A stretch of 64,000 nt of DNA from an uncultured Chloroflexia bacterium (GCA_963827475.1 CAWHAZ010000005.1:832001-896000); one strand, 5' to 3'. Positions 1-45,853 are shown, numbered from the stretch's first letter. Translations and numbers: made by a program. Notes: generated by a model not told the origin, from the sequence alone.

Positions 1-1348
1 GTGGCGCTGAAGACCATCGGTCTGCTGGCGCTCATGCACCAGGCCGGCCTTCGGGTGCCCGCCGCTGCCGGCGCCCGCCTGCCGGTCTTCGCCCAGGTCT
101 TTGCCGATATCGGGGATGAGCAGGGCATCGCGCAGTCCCTTTCGACCTTCTCGTCGCACCTGCGCAACGTCGTCCGCTTCCTGGAGGCCGCCGGCCCGCG
201 GAGCCTGGTGCTGCTCGACGAGATCGGTGCCGGAACCGACCCGACCGAAGGCTCCGCCCTGGCCATGGCCGTCGTCACCGTGCTCCTCGACCGCGGCGCC
301 CTGGTCGCGGCCACGACCCACTACGCCGAGCTGAAGGCCTTCGCCGAGACCCAGCCGGGGGTGACCAACGCCGCGGTCGAGTTCGACGTCGCCACGCTGC
401 GCCCGACCTACCACCTGTCGATCGGCCTGCCGGGTGCCTCGCAGGCGTTCGCGATCGCCGAGCGGCTCGGGCTCGCGCCGGAGGTCCTTGCGCTGGCCCG
501 GGAGCGGATCTCCTCGACCCATGCCTCCCTCGAGGAAACTCTGGCCGCCATCCGACGGACCGAAGCCGAGCGCTCCGAGGCGCTGGCCAGCGCGGCCGAG
601 GAGCGCGATGACGGCCCGCGTCGAGCGGGACCGGGCGGTCGCCGGGACCGAGCGCGCCCGGCGGGAAGCGGCCCGCATCCTGGCCGAAGCCGGCCGCGTC
701 GCCGACGCGATCCTGCTGGATGCCGAACGCGACGCGGCCGAGGTCCGCAGGGCGGCTGGCCGCTCTCCGGCGACCGCGACCGTGAAGACCGGGACCGCGA
801 AGACCGCCGCGTCCAGTCCCCCGCGGCGCACGAAACCAGCCGTCCCACCCGAGCTGGCCGAGATCGCCGAACTCGCCCCGGAACCGGGCCCGCAGCCACG
901 TGTCGGCCTGTGGGGTCGCAGCCGGACGCTCGGCCAGAGCGGGCGCATCGGCGCCATCAGCGGGCGGACGGGACGGATCACCCTCGAGTCGGACGGGGCC
1001 CGGCTGGTCGTGCCCGGGGCCGACGTGGAGGTCATCGACGAGCCGCATGCCGGCCCACCACCGCGCGACGAGGCGGCCGATGAGCTCCGGCGCCGGGCGG
1101 CGGCGCAGCTCGGGACCTCACTCGACCTGCGTGGAGAGCGGGTCGAGGACGCGCTGGAGCGACTGGCGGGATACCTGGACCAGGCACTGCTGGCCGGCGC
1201 CGATGAAGCGGTGATCATTCACGGCGCCGGCACCGGCGCGCTGCGACGGGCGATCCGCGAGTACCTCGCCGGTCACCCGCGGGTCCGCGGCCAGCGTCGC
1301 GGGCGGCGCGAGGAAGGCGGGGACGGGGCGACCGTCGCCGAGCTCTAA
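1..1348 (+). CDS. mutS2: Endonuclease MutS2, 5' partial, one frameshift near 608
   Basis: Frame 1 has MutS ATPase motifs (DIGDEQ, SLSTFSSH, LLDEIGAGTDPTEG, TTHY). The 434..1348 frame ends in an Smr domain (LDLRGERVEDA, IIHGAGTGAL, GGDGAT). Confidence 0.92.
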
Positions 1349-4135
1349 GGGCTGGAGCGAGGTCGGCTCGGGGGTCGGGGTCGGCGGCGGCGTCGGCACG
1401 GGCGTGGCCTCCGGCGTCGGGGTGGCCTCCGGCGTCGGGGTGGAGGTCGGGATCTCGCCCGGGACGCACTCCTCGGTCGGCGCCAGCGGCGCGTCCAGGG
1501 CGCCGAGCGGTCCGCGCGGAATGCTCGCCTCGTTGCCGCGCATGGCGTCGATCCACGCCCGGTTCGACGCTTCCCACACCGCGTTCGGCTCGTCCCAGCC
1601 GACGAGATCGAGGAAGACCGACAGGAGCGGCGCGAGGGGCGGCTCGGGCTCCCCGCTGGGCTGCGGCCCGGTCGGCGGCGCCGGGGTGGCGGGCACGAAG
1701 TCGCCGCAACCCTGCTGCCAGATCCGGCCGGTCGCGGCCTCGATGGCCAGCTCGACGTGCGAGTCATCGGTATCGACGTTCGGCCCGTTGGCCATGAACA
1801 GCTCGGTCATGGTCTGCGTCGTGTGCTCACCGGGGGCCTGGCCGGTGATCCGGTCGATCGAGCGCTCGGTGATCCCGTCGGGTCGCACGAAGTCGCGGAT
1901 GGGCAGGGCATTGAGCGCGGTGACCTCGGCCATGTAGTCGTGCCAGATGAAGGTCGGGCCGTCCGCGGCGAAGACCGAGTCGATCGAGGAGAAGTCGCTG
2001 TTGCCGACCCAGACGCCGGTCATGATCGCGCCCTCGTCGATCTCCGGGTCGGCGTCGGCGGCGAGGAAGCCGAAGGCCTGCAGATCGCGGAAGTCGGTCG
2101 TGGTGCCGGTCTTCAGGGTCGCCGGCCGTCGGCCGGCATCGGTCAGCAGCTGGAAGCGCGGGCCCCACAGCGAGTTCTGGGCCGGATCGGTGTTGTCGGC
2201 CAGGATGTCGGTCGTCAGGTACGCGGCCTGCGCGGAGATGGCCTGCACCGGATCGGGGCCGTCCACCGAGCGCTCGTAGATGACGTTCCCATCCCGGTCG
2301 AGGATCCGTTCGACCAGGTATGGCGCGTTGTAGATGCCCCCGTTGGCCAGCGCCCCGTATGACGCGGCAAGGTCGATCATCCGGACGCCGATCGTGCCGA
2401 GGGTGAGCGAGGCGACGTGGGGATCCTGGTTCGGGTCCCACTCGAGGCCGAGACGCTCGGCCTGGTCCACGACCTGCTCTGTGCCGATCAGCTGCTGGGC
2501 CTTGGTGACCGGGATGTTCAGCGAGTACTTCAGCGCGTCGCGGACCCGAACCGGTCCGCGCTCGCGGTTGTCGGCGTCGTGGACCGCGTAGCCGGGCACG
2601 ATCTCGGTCTCGACGTCCATGAGCATCGTGGCCGGCGTGATCGTTCCGGTCTCGAAGCCGGTGGCATAAGTGATCGGCTTGAAGGCCGAACCTGACTGGC
2701 GGAAGGCCTGGCCCACGACGTCGTACTGCGGCTGGTGGATGGGGGTCACCTCGCCGTAGAAGTTGGCGCTGCCGACGTAGGCCACCACCGCCCCGGTCCG
2801 GTAGTTCAGCGAGACGATGGCGTCGTTGCCGATGTTCCGTCCCTGGAGCTGGTTGATCCAGGCCATCGCACCGGCGCCGTAGCGCGCGGCGAGCTCTTCA
2901 TCGGTCAGGCGGTCCATGTCGTACACCACCTGGGCCCACTTCTCGGCCGACACCTGGTAGCCCTCGTACATGAGGGTCGTCTCGATCGTCAGCCCGCCGC
3001 GGTCGATGATGTCCTCCGAGCCGAGCAGCTCGGCGACCTCCCGCCGCGTGGCGTAGACGAAGTGGGGGGCCAGGTAGCGCGGAACCTCGGGCACGACCAC
3101 GTACACCGGCTCGTCGAGGATCTCGTTGCGCTCCACCTCGGGCAGGTACTCGAGCTCGACCATGTCGTTGAGCACGTCATTGCGGATGAGGACCGGCTGG
3201 GCGTCGGCCGGCACCTCGAGCAGGTTCGCGATCGGCTGGCCCGCGTCGTCGGTGGCCGGGATGGCGTACTGGGTCGGGTCGAGCTCGGAGGGTGCCCGGA
3301 GCAGGCCCGCCAGGAGCGCGGCCTCGGCCGGGGTGACCACGTTCGGGTCGGGCGGCGGCTCCGGTGCGGGGCTCGCGCCCGGGCTGGGGGCCGGGGTCGG
3401 GACCGGCGTGGGTGCGACGCTCGGAGCGGGGCTCGCGTCGGGGTCGGTCGGCGTTTCGGTCACCAGCAGGAAGTCCTTGCCGAAGTACCGATCCACCGCG
3501 GCCCAGATCCCGTACCCGTTGTTGCCGTAGTACATCTCGTTCAGGAAGAACTCCATGATCTGCTCCTTGCCCTCGAGGCCCGGGTAGGCCGCGTCGAGCT
3601 CGAGCGCGAGCATCGCTTCCTTGATCTTCCGCTCCAGCTGGCGGGTGGGATCGGCCATGAGGTCGGGCGGCAGCAGCACGCTGCGGACGAGCTGCTGGCA
3701 GATCGTCGAGGCGCCGGACACCACGTCCCCGGCGGACACGTTCTGGAGGAAGGCACGTACGATGGCCCGCGGGTCCACGCACGGGTTGTCCCAGTACGTG
3801 TGGTCCTCGGCCGCCACGGTGGCGTCGACGATGACGGTTGGAATCTGCTCGTAGTCCACCACGCGTCGGTTCGTCTCGGCGAAGGTGGCCAGCTCCCGCT
3901 CGTCGGCGGAGACGACCATCGAGCCCTCGTCGGGTGCGTACTCCTCGAGCACGGTGACGTCGGGGAGCGAGCTCGCGTACGAGGAGTACAGCAGCACGGC
4001 GGCCAGCACCATCCCGCCCGCCAGCACGCCGAAGACGGCGAAAATCACGGCGGGGAGAGGCTGGATGCGCTTCTGCGAAGCGGCGCCGGCCTGGGCGGGC
4101 GGGTAGCCCGCCGGCGGCGGAGGTGACGAGGTCAC
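1345..4135 (-). CDS. Class A penicillin-binding protein (GT51 transglycosylase + transpeptidase) with Pro/Thr-rich linkers
   Basis: TM anchor, GT51 motifs (AAEDHTY, GASTICQQL, RKIKE) and transpeptidase motifs SAFK, SLN, KTGT. GTG start at 4135 is inferred. The true stop is probably 1345 after an indel near 1362; the listed ORF reads on into mutS2. Confidence 0.88.
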
Positions 4136-4223
4136 GGCCGCGAACTCTAACAGAGCAACCTCCGGAACGCCCGCGGGCAGGCCGGGCGGGCCGTGCGGTG
4201 AACGGGCCGGGTACCATCGGCCG

Positions 4224-5432
4224 ATGGAACGGGACGCGGCCATCGAGACCGTCCTCAGCCGCCGGGTGGCCCAGGTCGTGGAGGCGGACGCCCTGCGGAC
4301 CATGCTCCGCGGCGACCGGCCGCTGCGCGTGAAGCTCGGGATCGACCCCACCAGCCCGGACCTGCACATCGGTCATGCGGTCGTCCTCGAGCGCATCCGG
4401 GCCTTCCAGGATCTCGGCCACACCGCGGTCCTGGTGGTCGGGGACACGACAGCCCAGATCGGGGACCCATCGGAGAAGAACGCGACCAGACCGATGCTGT
4501 CGCGGGACGAGGTCCGGGCCAACGCCGAGACGTACCTGGCCCAGTTCCACCTCGTCGTCGACGAGTCTCGAACCGAGGTCCGATGGCAGTCGGAGTGGTT
4601 CGACGAGTTCCGGCTCCGCGAGGTCTTCGCGCTCATGAGCCGGTTCACCCTGGCCCGCATGATCGAACGCGACACGTTTGCCAAGCGCCTGGCGGAGGGG
4701 GCGCCGGTGTCGATGCACGAGACGATGTACCCGCTGCTGCAGGCCTATGACTCGGTCGCGGTCGAGGCGGACGTCGAGCTCGGTGGCACCGACCAGACCT
4801 TCAACCTGCTCGTCGGGCGGGACGTGCAGCGCGACTACGGGCAGGCCCCCCAGCAGATCATGACCTCCGAGCTCCTGGTCGGGATCGACGGCGTCCAGAA
4901 GATGAGCAAGTCGCTGGGCAACGCGATCGGCCTGACCGATGCGCCCTACGACATGTACGCCCGGACGTTGAGCATCCCCGATGACCTGCTCCCGAACTGG
5001 GCCGGCCTGGTCACCCGCTGGACCGATGACGAGACGCGCGCCTTCCTCGTCGGCCTCGAGGCCGACCGGATCCACCCCAAGGCGGCGAAGCAACGCGTCG
5101 CCCGCGAGATCGTGTCCCGATGGCATGACGACGACGCGGCCGACGCCGCCGAGGAGCGCTGGGAGCGCGAGGTCGGCGGGGGAGAGGGCATCACGCTGTC
5201 GGACCTGGAGGAAGTTGAGGTGTCCGTGCCGCTGGCCGGTATCAGCCTGCCGGACCTGCTCGTCGTCGCCGGCCTGGCGTCGTCACGGGGTGTCGGCCGC
5301 CGTCTCGTCCGCCAGGGCGGGGTGCGGGTCGATGGCGAGGTGCAGGTCGACGAGAACCGGATGTTCGCGGCGGGGATCATGCACGAGGTGCGGGTCGGCA
5401 AGCGCTCCGCGGCGCGCGTCAACCTGACGTGA
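4224..5432 (+). CDS. tyrS: Tyrosine--tRNA ligase
   Basis: GIDPTSPDLHIGH, YPLLQAYD, GGTDQTFN, KMSKS and a C-terminal S4-like domain. Confidence 0.97.
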   Translation: MERDAAIETVLSRRVAQVVEADALRTMLRGDRPLRVKLGIDPTSPDLHIGHAVVLERIRAFQDLGHTAVLVVGDTTAQIGDPSEKNATRPMLSRDEVRANAETYLAQFHLVVDESRTEVRWQSEWFDEFRLREVFALMSRFTLARMIERDTFAKRLAEGAPVSMHETMYPLLQAYDSVAVEADVELGGTDQTFNLLVGRDVQRDYGQAPQQIMTSELLVGIDGVQKMSKSLGNAIGLTDAPYDMYARTLSIPDDLLPNWAGLVTRWTDDETRAFLVGLEADRIHPKAAKQRVAREIVSRWHDDDAADAAEERWEREVGGGEGITLSDLEEVEVSVPLAGISLPDLLVVAGLASSRGVGRRLVRQGGVRVDGEVQVDENRMFAAGIMHEVRVGKRSAARVNLT

Positions 5433-36943: not shown

Positions 36944-38056
36944 ATGGACGCGACAGCGGCCGCCCCCAAGACCAAGGCCAACGGGGAGAAGAACCCGGCC
37001 AACGGCGAGCGCGCCCGCGCGGTCGATGCGGCCATCCTCCAGATCGAGAAGCAGTTCGGGCAGGGCGCGATCATGCGGCTCGGCGACACCGGTGCGCGGA
37101 TGGCGGTCGATGTCATTCCGACCGGGTCGATCGCGCTCGACCTCGCCCTCGGCGTGGGCGGCGTGCCGCGCGGCCGGATCACGGAGATCTTCGGCCCCGA
37201 GTCGAGCGGCAAGACGACCCTGTGCTACCACATCGCCGCCAACGCCCAGAAGACCGGCGGGATCGTGGCCTTCATCGACGCCGAGCACGCGCTGGACCCG
37301 GGGTACGCCCGCAACCTGGGCGTCAACGTGGACGAGCTGCTCGTCAGCCAGCCGGACACCGGGGAGCAGGCACTCGAGATCGCGGAGACCCTCATTCGGA
37401 GCAGCGGCGTGGACGTCGTCATCGTCGACTCGGTGGCGGCCCTCGTGCCGCGGGCGGAGATCGAAGGCGAGATGGGGGACTCCTTCGTCGGCCTCCAGGC
37501 CCGGCTCATGAGCCAGGCGCTGCGCAAGCTCACCGGCGCCGTGAGCCGCTCGAACACGGCGCTGGTCTTCACCAACCAGCTGCGCGAAAAGATCGGGGTC
37601 ATGTTCGGCAACCCCGAGACCACGCCCGGCGGCCGCGCCCTGAAGTTCTACGCCTCGATCCGGATGGACATCCGTCGGATCGAGACGCTGAAGAACGGGA
37701 CCGATGCGTTCGGCAGCCGGACCCGGGTCAAGGTCGTGAAGAACAAGGTCGCCTCGCCTTTCCGGATCGCGGAGTTCGACATCCTCTACAACGAGGGCAT
37801 CTCCCGCGAGGGCGGCCTGCTCGACGTCGGGATCGCGTCGGGCGTGCTGTCGAAGACGGGCGCGTGGTTCAACTACGGCGACACCCGCCTCGGCAACGGC
37901 CGCGAGGCGGCGCGCGAGTTCCTGAAGGCCAACCCCGGCATGGCCGACGCGATCGAGGACGAGATCCGCGGCCGGGTGGCGGCCATCACCATCGGCGACG
38001 ACGGGACGGTGCCCGAGTCGGAGTCGGCGACCGCGGAGTCCGCGACCCCGGCCTGA
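36944..38056 (+). CDS. recA: Recombinase RecA
   Basis: [43 protein letters not shown] precedes the ATG. Confidence 0.98.
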
Positions 38057-38060
38057 CCGG

Positions 38061-38633
38061 GTGACAACGCCTCGGAAGCGCGCGGGGAGGGCCTCGGAGC
38101 CGAAGCCTCCGCCGGATCCCGAGCAGGCGTTCGAGATCGCGGGACGCTTCCTCGGGACGCGGCCTCGCTCTCGCTGGGAAGTCGAGCAGCGGCTTCGCCG
38201 TGCCGGCGCGTCCGACGAGGTGGTGGCCGCCACGCTCGAGCGCCTGGAGCGGATCGGGTTCGTGGACGACGAGGCCTTCGCCCGGTGGTGGGTGGAGCAG
38301 CGCGATCGCCACGCCCCGCGCGGACGGATGGCGCTCGAATCTGAGTTGCGGGCCAAGCGGCTGTCGCCGGCGGTCATCGCGTCGCTGCGGGACGCGCCGG
38401 ACGGGGAGCTGCCGGCCACCGATGACGAGCGGGCGGCCGCCGCGCTTGACCGGCACCTGAAGGGACGGCCGCTGCCAGAGGACCCGAAGGCGCTCCAGCG
38501 GCTCGGGATGTTCCTCGTGAGACGCGGCTTCGAGCCGGGCACGGCGCGGCGCGTCCTCCAGGCAGCTTCCGCCGAAAGTACTGGTGCCGAAAGTACTGCC
38601 GGAGGGGGTCGTTCCGCCGCGGACGAGGACTAG
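38061..38633 (+). CDS. recX: Regulatory protein RecX
   Basis: RPRSRWEV, GFVDDEAFA, ELRAK, FLVRRGF; directly follows recA. Confidence 0.88.
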   Translation: MTTPRKRAGRASEPKPPPDPEQAFEIAGRFLGTRPRSRWEVEQRLRRAGASDEVVAATLERLERIGFVDDEAFARWWVEQRDRHAPRGRMALESELRAKRLSPAVIASLRDAPDGELPATDDERAAAALDRHLKGRPLPEDPKALQRLGMFLVRRGFEPGTARRVLQAASAESTGAESTAGGGRSAADED

Positions 38634-38675
38634 CCTCGCATGAGGTGACGAGGCGCGTCACCAACAGGCGATGGC

Positions 38676-38762
38676 CTGAAAAAGGCAAACCTGCCGCGAG
38701 GTGGGGACGCAAAGCCAAGGGTCTCGTGGTCGAACCCCACGAGACAGCCCGGCCGCCAGAAT
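38676..38762 (+). ncRNA. c-di-GMP-I (GEMM-I) riboswitch
   Basis: GGCAAAC-CTGCC-GCGA-GGTGG-GGACGCAAAGCC-AAGGGTCTCGTGG...CCACGAGACAGCCCGGCCGCC fits the recalled GEMM-I layout: GNRA-capped P2, GACGCAAAGC junction, P3. Confidence 0.88.
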
Positions 38763-38793
38763 GCCCTCGCATCATTCTGTGAAGGGGAGAGTG

Positions 38794-40485
38794 ATGCAGG
38801 CAGTCAGCACCGCAGGCGCGGATGTCGACGGTCGACGCGACCGCGCCGCCGACCGCGCTCTGGTAACCCACATCGAGCTTCCCGCCGGTCCTGTTGCACG
38901 GCTGCGGATCCTCTTCGGCGTGTCCTGGGAATACTTCCGATCGGGCCCTTCATCCGGCGGGAGTCGGCCCTTTGGGCGTCCGCATCGCTTTGCGACTGCC
39001 CTGACCGCCTTTGCGCTCTTCGCCTCGGTCGTGGCGCCTTCCGCATCCATGGGCGCGACCTACGATCCGGCCACCGATCCGTACGCGATGTCCAACACGA
39101 CCCTCTTGATGGGCGCCGCCGCCTGGTGGCAGGCGGGATACACGGGCGCCGGGGTGGACGTCGCGGTCATCGACACGGGAGTCAACCCGGTCGAGGGACT
39201 GGCCACTCCCGGCAAGATCGTCTACGGCCCCGACCTGTCCCTGGAATCGCAGGCCGACGCCTACCGGCACCTCGACACCAATGGGCACGGGACGTTCATG
39301 GCGGGCCTGATCGCCGGCCGGGATTCCGGACTCCAGCAGCCGTACGCCTCCGCTCCGGCGTCGGCCTACCGGGGTGTCGCCCCGGATGCCCGAGTCGTGA
39401 GCCTCAAGGTGGGCGTCGCGGACGGCGGCGTCGATGTCTCGCAGGTGATCGCGGCCATCGACTGGGTCGTCCAGCATCGGTACGACAACGGGATGAACAT
39501 CCGCGTCATCAACCTGTCCTACGGGACGAACTCGACCCAGGATGCGATCTTCGATCCGCTGTCGTTCGCCGCCGAGCAGGCGTGGAAGAAGGGGATCGTG
39601 GTCGTGGCGGCCGGGGGCAACGCGGGCTTCCAGCGGCACATGAACAACGCGCCGGCCCTCGCCAACCCGGCGAATAACCGCTACCTGCTGGCCGTCGGCT
39701 CGACCGACTCGCTCGGCACCGCTGTGCTCGCCGACGACGTCGTCCCGGCGTTCTCGCCGTGGCCGAAGCGCGGCGCGACGAGGGGTGTCGACCTGGTCGC
39801 CCCGGGTGTCCGCCTCCAGGGCCTGCGCGTCCCGAACAGCTACATCGACCTCAACTACCCCGCGGGACAGCTCGGTGATCGCTTCTTCCGGGGCAGCGGC
39901 ACGTCGGAGTCGGCCGCACTCGTTTCGGGCGCCGTGGCGCTCGTCCTGCAGAAGTACCCCGACGCCACGCCGGACCAGGTCAAGGCGCTGCTCATGGGCA
40001 GCGGGTACGAGATCAATGCCAAGGCGCAGGCCATCGGCGGCGGTGAGGTCCAACTCACTCAGGCGCTCACCATGAACCTGCCGATCTCCGTGCAGATCTG
40101 GCCGTCCTCGGTCGGTACCGGATCGCTCGAGCTGGCCCGCGGCACGGACCACGTCTCCGACGATGGGGTCGTGCTGTCCGGCGAGCAGGACATCTTCGGC
40201 CACGAATTCAATTCGCCGGCCATGGCCGCTCTCGAAGCCGCAGGCAACTCGTGGTCCGGTGGCGTCTGGAACGGCAACAGCTGGTCGGGCAACTCGTGGT
40301 CCGGCAACTCGTGGTCCGGCAACAGCTGGAGTGGGAACAGCTGGTCGGGCAACTCGTGGTCCGGCAACAGCTGGAGTGGGAACAGCTGGTCGGGCAACTC
40401 GTGGTCCGGCAACAGCTGGAGTGGGAACAGCTGGTCGGGCAACTCGTGGTCCGGCAACAGCTGGAGCACGGGCGGCTGGAACTAG
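38794..40485 (+). CDS. S8 subtilase with C-terminal (GNSWS)n Trp-pentapeptide tail
   Basis: Catalytic motifs VAVIDTG, NGHGTFMAG, AAGGN, GSGTSES. Internal hydrophobic signal/TM segment. AAGGGGAG precedes ATG 38794. Confidence 0.9.
   Translation: MQAVSTAGADVDGRRDRAADRALVTHIELPAGPVARLRILFGVSWEYFRSGPSSGGSRPFGRPHRFATALTAFALFASVVAPSASMGATYDPATDPYAMSNTTLLMGAAAWWQAGYTGAGVDVAVIDTGVNPVEGLATPGKIVYGPDLSLESQADAYRHLDTNGHGTFMAGLIAGRDSGLQQPYASAPASAYRGVAPDARVVSLKVGVADGGVDVSQVIAAIDWVVQHRYDNGMNIRVINLSYGTNSTQDAIFDPLSFAAEQAWKKGIVVVAAGGNAGFQRHMNNAPALANPANNRYLLAVGSTDSLGTAVLADDVVPAFSPWPKRGATRGVDLVAPGVRLQGLRVPNSYIDLNYPAGQLGDRFFRGSGTSESAALVSGAVALVLQKYPDATPDQVKALLMGSGYEINAKAQAIGGGEVQLTQALTMNLPISVQIWPSSVGTGSLELARGTDHVSDDGVVLSGEQDIFGHEFNSPAMAALEAAGNSWSGGVWNGNSWSGNSWSGNSWSGNSWSGNSWSGNSWSGNSWSGNSWSGNSWSGNSWSGNSWSGNSWSGNSWSTGGWN
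40243..40482 (+). repeat. Coding 15-nt tandem repeat, 16 units (GNSWS, GGVWN, 13x GNSWS, TGGWN)
   Basis: Read codon by codon; includes a perfect 3x45-nt higher-order repeat at 40318-40452. Confidence 0.97.
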
Positions 40486-40518
40486 GCGGCTCAAGGCCCG
40501 GAGTGGGCTGACGACGCT

Positions 40519-43173
40519 ATGAACGGCCGCCTCGGGGAGCGCCTGCGCCACTACCCCGGTCTCGGCCGGGGCAGGACGCTTGGCGCACCGATGGCTCAGG
40601 CTGTCGTGGCTCGACTGACCCGGGTGCCGCTCGTATCGCGGGTCTGGGCCTTCGTGTTGCTGATCGACGTCGCCGCGGTGGCGGTGGCCGTCCTGGTGCT
40701 CCCCGGGCTGGAGCCCCTGGATCCGTCATGGCAGCTGCCCTGGTTCGTGCTCGCCGGCGGTTTCTGGGCCGCCGAGGCCCGCGTCATCCACTTCCATTTC
40801 CGCCGAGGGGCTCACACGTTCTCGTTGAATGAGCTCCCGCTCGTCATCGGCATGTTCCTCGCCGCTCCGCTGGACGTCGTCATCGCGCAGGTGGTGGGAT
40901 CCGCGGTGGCCCTGGCCTGGAACCGCCGGCAGCCCCCGGTCAAGCTGGCCTTCAACATCGGTTCGTTTGCGCTGTCGTCGAGCATTGGGCTCGCGGTCTT
41001 CCACATGGTCGGGTCCGGACCGATGACCGATCCATCTCGTTGGTTGGCGGCCTTCCTCGGCACGGGGATCGCGAACGTGGTGGGCGTCTTCGCGGTGGCT
41101 GCCGCGCTCACCGTGTCCGAGGGCAGCCTGGGGTTGGCAAAGCTGCGGCAGATGCTCGGCGTGTCATCGGTCGTCGCCGCCACGAACACGAGCGTGGCCC
41201 TGCTGGCGGTCATCATCGTCATCGCCGACCCGCGCGCGGCATGGCTCCTGGTCGTGCCCATCGCCACCCTCTTCTTCGGGTATCGAGCCTTCATCGGAGC
41301 GCGACAGCAGCACGAGTCCATGGAGCTCCTGTACGAGTCCACGCGCATCCTCCAGCGCACGCCCGAGCTCGACTCGGCGCTCGTCCAGCTGCTGGTCCAT
41401 AGCCGGACGATGTTCCGTGCGGAGCGCGCGGAGATCGTCATCTTCCCCGCCGAGCCGTCGGAGGCGTACCTGGTGACATCGGTGGCGGAGGACCGGACGA
41501 CGGTCATGGCGCCCGGCGACGCCGCCATCTGGAAACCACTCCACGCCTACCTGGCCGAGCACCCGAAAGCGTTCCTCCTGAACTCCACCTCCCTCGAGCT
41601 TGGCGAGGACCGCGAAGTCCGAGACGCGATGGTGGCGCCGTTGGGGACCGACGAGGGCATCGTTGGTGCGATGGTCGTGACCAACCGGCTCGGGGACGTG
41701 ACCACCTTCACCGCGGAAGATCTGCGCCTGTACGCGACGGTCGCCAGCCACGCCGGCACGGCCCTGGAGAATGGGCAGCTGGAGCGCTCGCTGACCAAGC
41801 TGTCCGTTCTGCAGGATGAGCTCAAGCACCAGGCATTTCACGACGGGCTGACCCAGCTGGCCAACCGCAGCCTGTTCCGCGAGAACGTCGATGCGCGGCT
41901 GGCCGCAATCACGCGCAGCCGGCGATCGGTAGTGATGTTCGTGGACCTCGACGATTTCAAGTTCGTGAACGACACGTACGGACACGAGGTGGGGGACGCC
42001 ATGCTGGTGGAGGTCGCGCGACGGCTCAACCTCTGCACCCGGACGGCCGATCTGACCGCTCGCCTGGGCGGCGACGAGTTCGCGATCCTGGTGGACGACC
42101 ATGCCGACCTGTCCAACGCCGAGCAGGTTGCGCAGCGCGTCACCGACTCGATCGGCCAGCCGTTCCTGATCGGGGACATCCAGACCCACGTCACCGCCAG
42201 CATCGGAATTGCCGCCGGACGGCAGGGAGGCTCGGCCGAGGACCTCCTCCGCCAGGCCGATATCGCGATGTACAGCGCCAAGGCAGCCGGAAAGGGCCGC
42301 TGGGCGGTGTACAAGGCGTCGATGCTGAAAGGCATCCAATCCCGGCATGACGCCGGCGAGGAGCTGCGCCGGGCCGTCGACCTCGGCGAGTTCGAGCTCC
42401 GCTACCAGCCGGTCGTCTCGCTCGAGTCGGGGGCGATCGTCGGCGCCGAGGCGCTGCTGCGCTGGAACCATCCCACCCGAGGCGAGGTCGAGCCGGACGA
42501 GTTCATCGGGGCCGCCGAAGACGGCGCGATCATCGTGCCCATCGGTCGCTGGGTGCTGGACGAGGCCTGTCGCCAGGCAGCGCGCTGGGGATCCGGCGAT
42601 GGATCGGGAGCGCCGTGGGTGGCCGTCAACCTCTCAGCGCGCCAGCTGCTTCACCCCACCCTCCTCGACGACGTCCGCGGCGCCATCGCCCGGTCCGGCC
42701 TGGCGCCGGCAAGCGTGGTGCTGGAGGTGACCGAGAGCGTGCTCCTGCACGACGCGGAGGCGGCGATCGCCGTCATCAGCGATCTGCGCAGGCTGGGGAT
42801 CCGGGTTGCCCTCGATGACTTCGGGACCGGATTCTCGTCGCTCAGCTACCTCCATCGGTTCCCGATCGACATCCTGAAGATCGGGCCCGGCTTCGTCGGG
42901 GTTGGGGATCGGAGCGACACCCGGTGGATCCTGACCGATGCGATCATCTCCCTCGGCAAGGCGCTTGGCCACCAGGTCGTGGCGGAGGGAGTCGAGCGCC
43001 GACATCAGGTCCAGCGCCTGAAAGCCGCCGGCTGTGAGCTGGCCCAGGGCTTCTTCTTCGCTCGGCCGCTGCACCCGGACACCCTCGCCACCCAGTTTGC
43101 GCATGACCTGGCCCAACGCCAGGGGTCGGACCGGATGGTGCAGTCGGAGGTCGGCGTAGACCAGGCCGCGTAG
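40519..43173 (+). CDS. Multi-TM sensor - GAF - GGDEF - EAL protein
   Basis: About 6-7 N-terminal TM helices, GAF-like segment, HDGLTQLANR, DLDDFK.VND.YGH..GD, RTAD I-site plus GGDEF, EALLRW, DDFGTGFSSL, VAEGVE. Confidence 0.92.
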   Translation: MNGRLGERLRHYPGLGRGRTLGAPMAQAVVARLTRVPLVSRVWAFVLLIDVAAVAVAVLVLPGLEPLDPSWQLPWFVLAGGFWAAEARVIHFHFRRGAHTFSLNELPLVIGMFLAAPLDVVIAQVVGSAVALAWNRRQPPVKLAFNIGSFALSSSIGLAVFHMVGSGPMTDPSRWLAAFLGTGIANVVGVFAVAAALTVSEGSLGLAKLRQMLGVSSVVAATNTSVALLAVIIVIADPRAAWLLVVPIATLFFGYRAFIGARQQHESMELLYESTRILQRTPELDSALVQLLVHSRTMFRAERAEIVIFPAEPSEAYLVTSVAEDRTTVMAPGDAAIWKPLHAYLAEHPKAFLLNSTSLELGEDREVRDAMVAPLGTDEGIVGAMVVTNRLGDVTTFTAEDLRLYATVASHAGTALENGQLERSLTKLSVLQDELKHQAFHDGLTQLANRSLFRENVDARLAAITRSRRSVVMFVDLDDFKFVNDTYGHEVGDAMLVEVARRLNLCTRTADLTARLGGDEFAILVDDHADLSNAEQVAQRVTDSIGQPFLIGDIQTHVTASIGIAAGRQGGSAEDLLRQADIAMYSAKAAGKGRWAVYKASMLKGIQSRHDAGEELRRAVDLGEFELRYQPVVSLESGAIVGAEALLRWNHPTRGEVEPDEFIGAAEDGAIIVPIGRWVLDEACRQAARWGSGDGSGAPWVAVNLSARQLLHPTLLDDVRGAIARSGLAPASVVLEVTESVLLHDAEAAIAVISDLRRLGIRVALDDFGTGFSSLSYLHRFPIDILKIGPGFVGVGDRSDTRWILTDAIISLGKALGHQVVAEGVERRHQVQRLKAAGCELAQGFFFARPLHPDTLATQFAHDLAQRQGSDRMVQSEVGVDQAA

Positions 43174-43217
43174 CGCGGCGCAGACGGGGCACAACCGGCC
43201 GGGTACCCTCTGCCCCG

Positions 43218-44210
43218 ATGCGCTTCGCCCTGATGACCGAGCCCCAGCAGGGGCTGTCCTACGACGAGATCCTCTCCGCCGCGCGGGCGGCCGAGACAGC
43301 AGGGTTCGAGGCGTTCTTCCGCTCCGACCACTACGCGAGCTTCCCCGGCCCGCCGGACAACCCGACGACTGACGCGTGGGCCACCCTCGCCGGCCTGGCC
43401 CGCGACACGGCGACCATCCACCTCGGGACGCTCGTGTCGCCGGTCACCTTCCGCCATCCGGGCAACCTGGCCAAGGTCGCGGCCACCGTCGACGAGATGA
43501 GCGGGGGCCGGGTCGAGGTCGGCCTGGGAGCCGGCTGGAACGACGTGGAGCACGCCGGGTATGGATTCCGTTACCCGGACCTCCCGGAGCGCTACGACAT
43601 GGTCGAGGAGACGCTCACCATCATCCACGGCCTGTGGACCGAGCCCGACGGTTGGTCGTTCACCGGGACGCACTGGCAGGTCCGCGACGCCCTGTTCCGC
43701 CCGCGGCCCACGGCATCGGGGAAGAAGCATCCGAACCTCCTCCTCGGCGGCGAGGGCGGCCCGCGCCAGGCCCGCCTGGTCGCCACCTGGGCCGACGAGT
43801 ACAACCGCACGTCGGCCTCGCCAACCAATGTCGGCGCGTCCTACGAGCGGGTGCGCGCCGCGTGCGAGGCGATCGGTCGCGATCCGGCCGAGGTCGAGCT
43901 GTCCGCCATGGTCGGTGTGCTGGTCGCGGAAACGGCGACGGAGCTGCAGGAGCGCGTCCGGGCCCAGCTGGCGGCATTCGGGTCAGACGCGCGTGGGGAT
44001 GGCGAAGCCTGGCTGGCCGAGCGGCGGGGGAGATGGATCCTGGGGACCCCGGACGAGGCACGGGAGCAGATCCGGGTCTTCGAGCAGGCGGGGGCGCAGC
44101 GGCTGATGCTCCAGGACTTCCTGCCCCGCGATCTCGACATGATTGGTCTGCTCGGGCAGATCGCCCGCAGCCTGAGCGCGGGAGGCGACCACCGGGACCA
44201 GTTGGAGTAG
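43218..44210 (+). CDS. LLM-class (putative F420-dependent) oxidoreductase
   Basis: EPQQG, FFRSDHY, TDAWATLAGLAR, FRHPG, DEMSGGRVEVGLGAGW. Confidence 0.88.
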   Translation: MRFALMTEPQQGLSYDEILSAARAAETAGFEAFFRSDHYASFPGPPDNPTTDAWATLAGLARDTATIHLGTLVSPVTFRHPGNLAKVAATVDEMSGGRVEVGLGAGWNDVEHAGYGFRYPDLPERYDMVEETLTIIHGLWTEPDGWSFTGTHWQVRDALFRPRPTASGKKHPNLLLGGEGGPRQARLVATWADEYNRTSASPTNVGASYERVRAACEAIGRDPAEVELSAMVGVLVAETATELQERVRAQLAAFGSDARGDGEAWLAERRGRWILGTPDEAREQIRVFEQAGAQRLMLQDFLPRDLDMIGLLGQIARSLSAGGDHRDQLE

Positions 44211-44324
44211 AGTACCCGCCACCGATCGTCGGACCGAACCCCGCCCATCGGCTTGACAGACCGTTAACGCGGGCCCTGGCAGGGCACGCCCGGACCTGAT
44301 CCTCGCTCCTAGAGGAAGGGAGCC

Positions 44325-45853
<1,529 letters not shown>

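Follow-up and report, generated by a model that had tools for sequence, protein, structure and literature searches.

What joins a riboswitch for cyclic di-GMP (c-di-GMP), a subtilase with a tryptophan (Trp)-repeat tail, and a membrane enzyme carrying the domains that make and degrade c-di-GMP, when all three lie side by side? This arrangement occurs in a 64,000-nucleotide stretch of DNA (64 kb, hereafter the window) from an uncultured soil Chloroflexia bacterium (GCA_963827475.1 CAWHAZ010000005.1:832001-896000, that is, contig C5:832001-896000 of source genome G000, which comprises 1.92 Mb in 7 contigs and is 90% complete). A preliminary description, made from the sequence alone, proposed that c-di-GMP controls an exported protease whose tail, or peptides cut from it, is sensed by the adjacent membrane domain, which in turn resets c-di-GMP. 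Here, we present evidence that the cassette is a genuine, conserved and undescribed c-di-GMP module, for which a feedback mechanism is plausible but unproven. Riboswitches for c-di-GMP, subtilases and GGDEF-EAL enzymes are each already familiar singly; what the literature searched does not describe is a cassette whose three parts are inherited together, with the sensor enzyme kept while the riboswitch-controlled product swaps between a Trp-tailed protease and Trp-terminal mini-peptides. The elements of the cassette in the window are as follows.

38675..38761, plus strand: c-di-GMP-I-type (GEMM-I) riboswitch aptamer (Rfam clan CL00126)
38794..40485, plus strand: S8 serine protease gene (PF00082, E 8e-40), 563 residues from ATG 38794
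40519..43173, plus strand: sensor enzyme composed of membrane domain, GAF, GGDEF and EAL, by Pfam domains; true start possibly ATG 40591

Within 4.5 kb lie the enzyme producing a second messenger, the RNA that reads it and the resulting output, a circuit so compact that feedback is directly testable in a heterologous host. The preliminary description knew of no characterized system with such a layout, and a literature search, with subscription journals and supplements outside its scope, likewise found no description of a riboswitch-protease-sensor cassette, no paper on the family DUF5317 that accompanies related sensors, and none joining a c-di-GMP riboswitch, a protease and a small peptide. 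In the literature found, the riboswitch variant c-di-GMP-I-GGC was mentioned only in passing, and a 2026 paper on Limnocylindria genomics was silent on the terms of the cassette.

Conserved linkage and exchange of cargo

Linkage of protease and sensor had been set beforehand as the refuting test of the proposal, and it proved to be conserved. We surveyed 401 genomes sampled from the class, using the post-catalytic region and tail of the protease as the query (E ≤ 1e-15). Matches were found at 38 places in 35 of the 401 genomes, and at 35 of the 38 loci a homologous sensor membrane domain is encoded adjacently on the same contig and strand (34 of 37 when the unpublished genome G016 is left out). 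The remaining three loci (G336:C168, G388:C61 and G391:C190) lie on other contigs than any sensor match, and two of them are contig-end fragments. One genome, G309, carries two protease-sensor pairs. Within the genus, both genes are present in the same 8 congeners and neither is present in 8 others. Two gene orders occur: riboswitch-protease-sensor at most loci, and sensor-riboswitch-protease, here called layout B, at others. Co-inheritance of riboswitch, protease and sensor as a unit is well supported by these genome comparisons.

A sensor-centered scan of one genome per species with an 8-row sensor alignment returned at least 215 relatives, of which the best 80 were analyzed. Nearly all of these best 80 of 215 loci are labelled Candidatus Limnocylindria, Limnocylindrales or Chloroflexota, with a few short contigs binned elsewhere, and the family is essentially confined to Candidatus Limnocylindria. 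For this lineage of soil and freshwater metagenome-assembled genomes, the cassette offers a first functional handle on signaling. Among the best 80 of 215 loci, 48 encode a tail-bearing S8 protease, 30 encode DUF5317 and/or peptide open reading frames (ORFs), 2 are truncated where the contig stops, and the two cargos never occur together. When GEMM hits were tabulated at related loci, the riboswitch was present in 9 of 11, 30 of 40 and 72 of 80 loci in three locus sets, the last being the best sensor loci; a riboswitch accompanies most of the linked loci. When 75 sensors are placed in a maximum-likelihood tree, those of the peptide type fall on one side (28 rows, 99 by the Shimodaira-Hasegawa-like approximate likelihood ratio test, SH-aLRT) and those of the protease type on the other (47 rows). 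Layout B forms a single clade within the protease-type sensors (100 SH-aLRT).

The alternative cargo is found in a sister clade (L069-L082 and L123-L166) whose loci encode the sensor, DUF5317, the riboswitch and then an ORF of 28-37 residues, with no protease; six of its loci are instead ordered DUF5317, riboswitch, peptides, sensor. Examples lie at L070:5235-5384 (minus strand) and L136:8502-8704. The first small ORF starts with GTG behind AAGGAG and encodes 28 fixed residues, comprising a basic N-terminus, a hydrophobic stretch and the motif G-A-G-[MI]-[RK]-W, after which follow 0-9 mostly aromatic or acidic residues. Its 32 distinct DNA versions share the fixed 28-codon core, show entropies of 15.5, 8.1 and 25.1 at the three codon positions, and are synonymous at 44% of the differing codons; judged by these features, the mini-peptide ORF is a real gene. 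A second, less conserved ORF is frequent and often ends in [AS]-G-[HQ]-R-W. The two alternative cargos, protease tail and mini-peptide, both carry Trp-rich C-terminal segments. No convincing peptide ORFs were found in the genome of the window or at S8-type loci, the few G-x-R-W motif matches in that genome being unrelated, chance-like ORFs of GC-rich DNA. Homology of DUF5317 to the membrane domain of the sensor was considered and rejected (hhalign probability 1.3%). In the window itself, the codons that come first downstream of the aptamer (GTG AAG GG. at 38779) are similar to those with which the sister-clade peptide begins.

One relative departs from this wiring altogether. In G146:C33 (L061, minus strand, approximately 1-5100), the membrane domain is fused to GAF-PAS-PAS-GAF-HisKA-HATPase-REC, and this kinase-fused sensor adjoins an S8 protease whose tail reads (GLSWS)n, at a locus where a riboswitch was looked for and not detected. 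Kinase and GGDEF-only architectures of the membrane domain are also present in the database. Because it is fused to kinase or GGDEF outputs in these relatives, the membrane domain appears to be an input module for different outputs, one that stays linked to the protease even where the wiring through c-di-GMP is gone.

The riboswitch, the protease and the sensor

The claim that a c-di-GMP-I riboswitch heads the unit is upheld by two covariance models. The RNA of the window scores 64.4 bits with RF03167 (c-di-GMP-I-GGC; gathering score 59), Rfam's top-ranked model for it, and 60.0 bits with RF01051, the canonical c-di-GMP-I model (gathering score 35). It is the sole structured RNA that Rfam finds in the 64 kb and the sole GEMM RNA of the genome. 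The RNA fails the RF03167 model at a single conserved position, the G at model position 37 in the junction after the first hairpin, where it has A. The junction GACGC-AA-AGCC is present in 113 of 113 aligned rows of related riboswitches, pooled from the partly overlapping sets A1, A2 and A7, so that in this respect the RNA and its relatives differ from the variant model. The name GGC refers to changed ligand-contact nucleotides, and position 37 presumably defines the variant. On that reading, because A replaces the conserved G, the RNA would be a c-di-GMP aptamer of canonical type, and its slightly higher score with the variant model would be incidental.

The RNA also resembles known members of the class in its covarying helices and in its position in the 5' leader of a gene for an envelope or secreted protein. 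Among 70 distinct sequences, in an alignment fitted to our own model, 92.7% of helix cells are paired, as against 32-59% when the partners are slid, and both partners have changed in 47 cells and 5 pairs. In the aptamer of G135 (L045) and about six other rows of sets A2 and A7, the base just before the conserved GCAAAC is A or C rather than the G found in the window. We take this position to be possibly the equivalent of G20, at which a change from G to A presumably shifts GEMM-I RNAs towards 3'3'-cGAMP (cyclic GMP-AMP). Around the aptamer, two further leader elements were noted.

38644..38662, plus strand: conserved small GC-rich hairpin immediately upstream of the aptamer, from inspection of the sequence and of orthologous leaders
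38770..38796, plus strand: predicted start-codon hairpin, a candidate expression platform, from minimum-free-energy and centroid folds of the leader

In the second of these, bases 38770-38778 are predicted to pair with 38788-38796, burying the AUG and the 3' half of the Shine-Dalgarno sequence (38784-38789). Analogous hairpins with other inner stems are predicted in four further S8-type leaders, and predicted folds of peptide-type leaders also enclose the ribosome-binding site. The leader folds have modest z-scores, from -2.2 to +0.3, and no consensus structure emerged when RNAalifold was given a sequence-only alignment of 24 leaders, so the proposed hairpin rests on single-sequence folds. No convincing anti-sequestor pairing was found in the leader, and c-di-GMP may turn the protease either on or off. 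The GC-rich hairpin 5' of the aptamer is common to protease-type and peptide-type leaders. A TANNNT-like hexamer at 38631-38636 overlaps the recX stop, and this hexamer and hairpin region is a possible leader start.

The preliminary description spoke of an exported subtilase with a (GNSWS)n tail. Both the subtilase and the tail are borne out by the domain match and the repeat, and export is our reading by eye of a hydrophobic, signal-like segment. The longest protease ORF spans 38701-40485; its likely start is ATG 38794, with GGGGAG five bases upstream, which yields the 563 residues of the protein's own database entry. The Asp, His and Ser residues of the triad and the oxyanion Asn (D44, H82, S288 and N193) are invariant in 23 orthologs, and the protease therefore looks catalytically active. 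AlphaFold modelled the catalytic domain with confidence. The best NCBIfam model, for the type VII secretion mycosins (TIGR03921), was rejected as an assignment, scoring 138.8 bits against a cut-off of 278.75. Three regions of the protein outside the catalytic domain recur below.

38989..39057, plus strand: signal-peptide-like or anchor segment, hydrophobic, residues 97-119 of the long ORF, from inspection of translations
40063..40242, plus strand: conserved post-catalytic region, specific to the protease subfamily, from invariant columns in the ortholog alignment
40243..40482, plus strand: Trp-pentad tail, reading GNSWS, GGVWN, 13 x GNSWS, TGGWN

A 65-residue N-terminal extension (38794-38988) with the conserved motif G-V-S-W-E-Y-F-[KR]-S-G precedes the signal-like segment. 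Reversed-layout orthologs carry similar Trp motifs ahead of the signal peptide. With residues 455-594 as the query, 1216 proteins were matched at E ≤ 1e-5, and PF00082 was present on 120 of 120 among the matches listed.

The last 80 residues of the protease form 16 pentads with Trp at position four, 14 of which are GNSWS. At the DNA level, the repeat is far less regular: Tandem Repeats Finder reports a 15-nucleotide period with 12.9 copies and only 70% matches, and identical peptide units are carried by differing codons. These codon differences argue for selection on the tail peptide and not slippage alone. The tails of orthologs comprise 4 to approximately 20 x-x-x-W-[ST] units, which are clade-specific: GNSWS, GSSWS, [AG]NEWS, GSSWT, GLSWS or ARSWT. 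The repeat DNA is an assembly hazard, as seen in a read-through frame change (G215:C1, L062), several frameshifts (G001:C4, L038) and an N run (G014, L037). An apparent protease-sensor fusion of 1505 residues in G215 reflects the frame change inside the repeat DNA and was left out of the counts.

The neighboring gene encodes the multi-spanning GAF-GGDEF-EAL protein of the preliminary description, its Pfam domains following approximately 260 hydrophobic residues. The gap of 33 nucleotides between the two genes, as first described, holds for the longest sensor ORF; because the conserved part starts near Met25 and the reading frame of ortholog G002 is closed by a stop ahead of Met25, the gap may instead be 105 nucleotides. 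The domains are arranged as follows.

40591..41298, plus strand: MASE9-like polytopic membrane domain with a fold like that of energy-coupling factor (ECF) S-components, from a structural model and fold search
41473..41772, plus strand: GAF domain (PF13492 and PF01590, at or just above cut-offs)
41833..42297, plus strand: GGDEF domain (E 1e-45) with intact GGDEF motif and an RxxD I-site five residues upstream
42358..43068, plus strand: EAL domain (E 2e-70) with intact EAL and DDFGTG motifs

Among 45 family members, 43 have GGDEF, 40 have RxxD-x5-GGDEF, 41 have EAL.R and 44 have DDFG[TAS]G. That the sensor can both make and break c-di-GMP is a well-supported prediction from these intact motifs.

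Pfam finds no match in the first 300 residues of the sensor. A model of the membrane domain built on a 36-sequence alignment reached a predicted local distance difference test score (pLDDT) of 88.6 and a predicted template modeling score of 0.83. In a VIA-align comparison with 48,161 chains, the top 15 matches were all ECF S-components (Z 10.3-13.6; next match Z 7.5), led by RibU (Z 13.6, root-mean-square deviation 3.2 over 164 residues); a helical bundle may, however, score this high simply through the way its helices are arranged, and an inverted topology is possible. RibU was also the best Foldseek match (E 0.05), which is weak agreement. The predicted fold may resemble the six-helix fold of an S-component, here joined to signaling domains. 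By sequence, PF20972 (MASE9) matches 4 of 36 relatives, at best with E 0.0012, and does not match the window protein at E ≤ 1; a language-model (Atlas) feature search returned a score of 0.90 to a MASE9-bearing cluster.

Galperin and Chou (bioRxiv 10.1101/2021.11.05.467447) describe MASE9 as a domain of eight predicted helices with a polar core, in which two helices that are not long enough to cross the membrane form a hairpin. They also report its fusion to HD-GYP, GGDEF-EAL and further output domains. In our model, short helices at 51-63 and 81-90 flank a hairpin, as in that description of about eight helices; Glu, His, Ser, Lys and Asn columns are invariant, and the domain is likewise fused to GGDEF-EAL. 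We call the domain MASE9-like, with marginal Pfam sequence membership. A ligand bound inside the membrane has been proposed for MASE9, and that study names no such ligand (bioRxiv 10.1101/2021.11.05.467447). With the Trp-rich products described here, a MASE-type membrane domain gains a concrete candidate for its partner or ligand.

Proposed feedback and competing explanations

How might these parts act together? We tentatively favor a complete feedback loop, which may well be correct without yet being probable. The c-di-GMP whose level is set by the sensor, through synthesis or degradation, and by the other cyclases of the genome would bind the aptamer, which would set translation of the protease, up or down, through the hairpin that pairs with its start codon and Shine-Dalgarno sequence. 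The exported protease would be held at the outer face of the membrane by its Trp-rich tail. This tail, whole or clipped, could then act on the MASE9-like domain and shift the balance of cyclase and phosphodiesterase activities. The corresponding part in the sister clade would be played by the 28-37-residue peptide under riboswitch control, which ends in G-A-G-[MI]-[RK]-W plus aromatics. Such feedback would be like that of MgrB on PhoQ, a working analogy for the peptide-type loci, in which the output of a sensor governs a small membrane peptide and this peptide could in turn influence the membrane domain of the sensor; the sequences are unrelated, and c-di-GMP is read here by a riboswitch rather than by a response regulator. 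It is plausible support for the loop that two unrelated cargos share a Trp-rich C-terminus and that the protease-sensor pair persists without a riboswitch. The sister-clade Trp peptides and the kinase-fused relative fit the view that a Trp-rich exported part and the membrane domain belong together.

Several observations weigh against this loop. The tail has no confident fold (AlphaFold pLDDT 26-44), and the outer loops of the sensor, as deduced from the positive-inside rule applied to model and sequence, are only a few residues long; the S-component-like pocket may face the cytoplasm. Prediction of a complex between the membrane domain and the last 91 residues of the protease gave no answer (0.00 in both runs), which speaks neither for nor against binding. 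Sensing of the tail by the membrane domain is something that we infer. The full loop is not universal, for at several of the more distant protease-sensor pairs (sensor identity 31-43%) a riboswitch could not be detected. Layout B places the sensor upstream of the riboswitch, so that the sensor is not always under its control. At peptide-type loci, the peptide has an equally near candidate partner in DUF5317. On the sensor tree, approximately one change of cargo, between peptide and protease, is enough; few independent events therefore lie behind the many linked loci, and the linkage could be maintained by vertical co-inheritance alone. Finally, a regulator placed beside its target, with no return path, explains the same data with fewer assumptions.

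This open arrangement is the strongest rival, a serious candidate that we nonetheless hold with some doubt. The MASE9-like domain would respond to some other cue from the membrane or envelope, the enzyme domains would set the c-di-GMP level, the riboswitch would read that level and switch the effector, be it protease or mini-peptides, and the Trp-rich ends would only anchor that effector at the membrane or wall. A regulator beside its target is the commonest cause of conserved adjacency, and the kinase-fused relative would simply be the same sensor with a different wire to the same target. The tiny outer loops already mentioned suit this explanation, as does the make-up of the genome, which encodes approximately 11 GGDEF and 4 EAL proteins but a single GEMM RNA. 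The same census cuts the other way, since 11 cyclases feed one pool and a dedicated neighbor is unneeded for read-out alone. Also left unexplained are the Trp-rich C-termini on both alternative cargos and the persistence of the S8-sensor pair where no riboswitch was detected.

The nearest functional precedents for an open arrangement come from Clostridioides difficile, in which class I c-di-GMP riboswitches directly control the secreted protease ZmpI/PPEP-1 and, as reported in October 2026, 58-residue membrane-associated small proteins, which reportedly lack homologs outside C. difficile (PMC13724677). In that system, as here, a class I riboswitch governs a secreted protease or small membrane-associated proteins. 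ZmpI is a metalloprotease, however, and the proteins are unrelated; none is described with a dedicated membrane GGDEF-EAL neighbor, and control there is by transcription termination, as opposed to the start-codon hairpin predicted in the window (PMC13724677).

Peptide release would be a different form of communication. In the fullest version, the tail is a tandem precursor of a pentapeptide signal and the mini-peptides are single-copy precursors, their production gated by the riboswitch and the signal received within the membrane by the MASE9-like domain, which would retune c-di-GMP. We consider this unlikely; if true, it would constitute a peptide-signaling loop through a second messenger and a riboswitch and would provide the first ligand for a MASE-type domain. 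Slightly more doubtful still is the specific route by which autoproteolysis would free GNSWS-type pentapeptides and signal peptidase would free [MI][RK]W-type peptides as diffusible signals for the MASE9-like domain. Perfect peptide units despite codon differences, the range in copy number from 4 to about 20, an active-looking protease in cis, and a membrane fold resembling small-ligand-binding S-components all point towards a precursor. No conserved processing site, transporter or modification gene was found nearby, however, and the repeat could equally be a structural or adhesive module.

An inside-out arrangement like that of LapD and LapG is improbable. The sensor would be mainly a c-di-GMP receptor, by way of its I-site, EAL and GAF, whose membrane domain captures or releases the protease by its Trp tail, thereby gating surface proteolysis. 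A protease gene beside a membrane GGDEF-EAL gene is the lapG-lapD arrangement, in which c-di-GMP ultimately decides extracellular proteolysis, and 40 of the 45 sensors have an RxxD I-site. LapG, however, belongs to the cysteine proteases, and LapD has lost catalytic function and contains a HAMP as well as a periplasmic domain; here, in contrast, the GGDEF and EAL motifs are intact, the polytopic membrane domain has minimal loops and no periplasmic domain, and the protease belongs to S8. A match to the NCBIfam LapD model, at 133 bits, speaks for the arrangement, but with a cut-off of 1020 it leaves the sensor outside the LapD family. Furthermore, the kinase-fused relative cannot work inside-out through c-di-GMP.

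Chance adjacency or mobile insertion of functionally unrelated genes is scarcely credible, for although congeners either have or lack the cassette at a single site, and the genome is rich in GGDEF genes, the linkage persists to approximately 31-45% sensor identity, in two gene orders, two families and with a changed output domain.

Genomic setting and transcripts

The cassette occupies a defined place in the chromosome, in the local gene order recA-recX-[riboswitch+protease+sensor]-LLM-rny-ymdB-miaA-hflX, where LLM denotes a gene for a luciferase-like monooxygenase. Its two immediate neighbors are the following.

38061..38633, plus strand: recX, left backbone flank of the cassette (Pfam RecX_HTH1/2/3)
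43218..44210, plus strand: luciferase-like monooxygenase (PF00296), right backbone flank, outside the cassette

In four of four cassette-less congeners examined, recX directly abuts the LLM gene, and the cassette therefore consists of exactly the riboswitch, the protease and the sensor. The interruption of the order recA-recX-rny-ymdB noted in the preliminary description lies, more exactly, between recX and LLM, the backbone itself including the LLM gene. The presence of LLM between recX and rny belongs to the genus backbone and is a local peculiarity of the recA-recX-rny-ymdB neighborhood.

A promoter and terminator scan of 38000-44400 found no promoter and no plus-strand terminator, including in the gap between protease and sensor. 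No metatranscriptome contig was seen to bridge the protease and sensor genes among the short contigs of four runs from one rhizosphere study. RNA-library contigs from these runs, 95-99% identical to the window, match parts of recX, the riboswitch, the protease, the sensor and LLM. Being short, from one study and possibly affected by DNA carry-over, they are weakly compatible with transcription in soil, mark no transcript ends and are not proof of transcription or of an operon. Far from the cassette, at C5:9540-10088, the source genome encodes a homolog of DUF5317 (30% identity).

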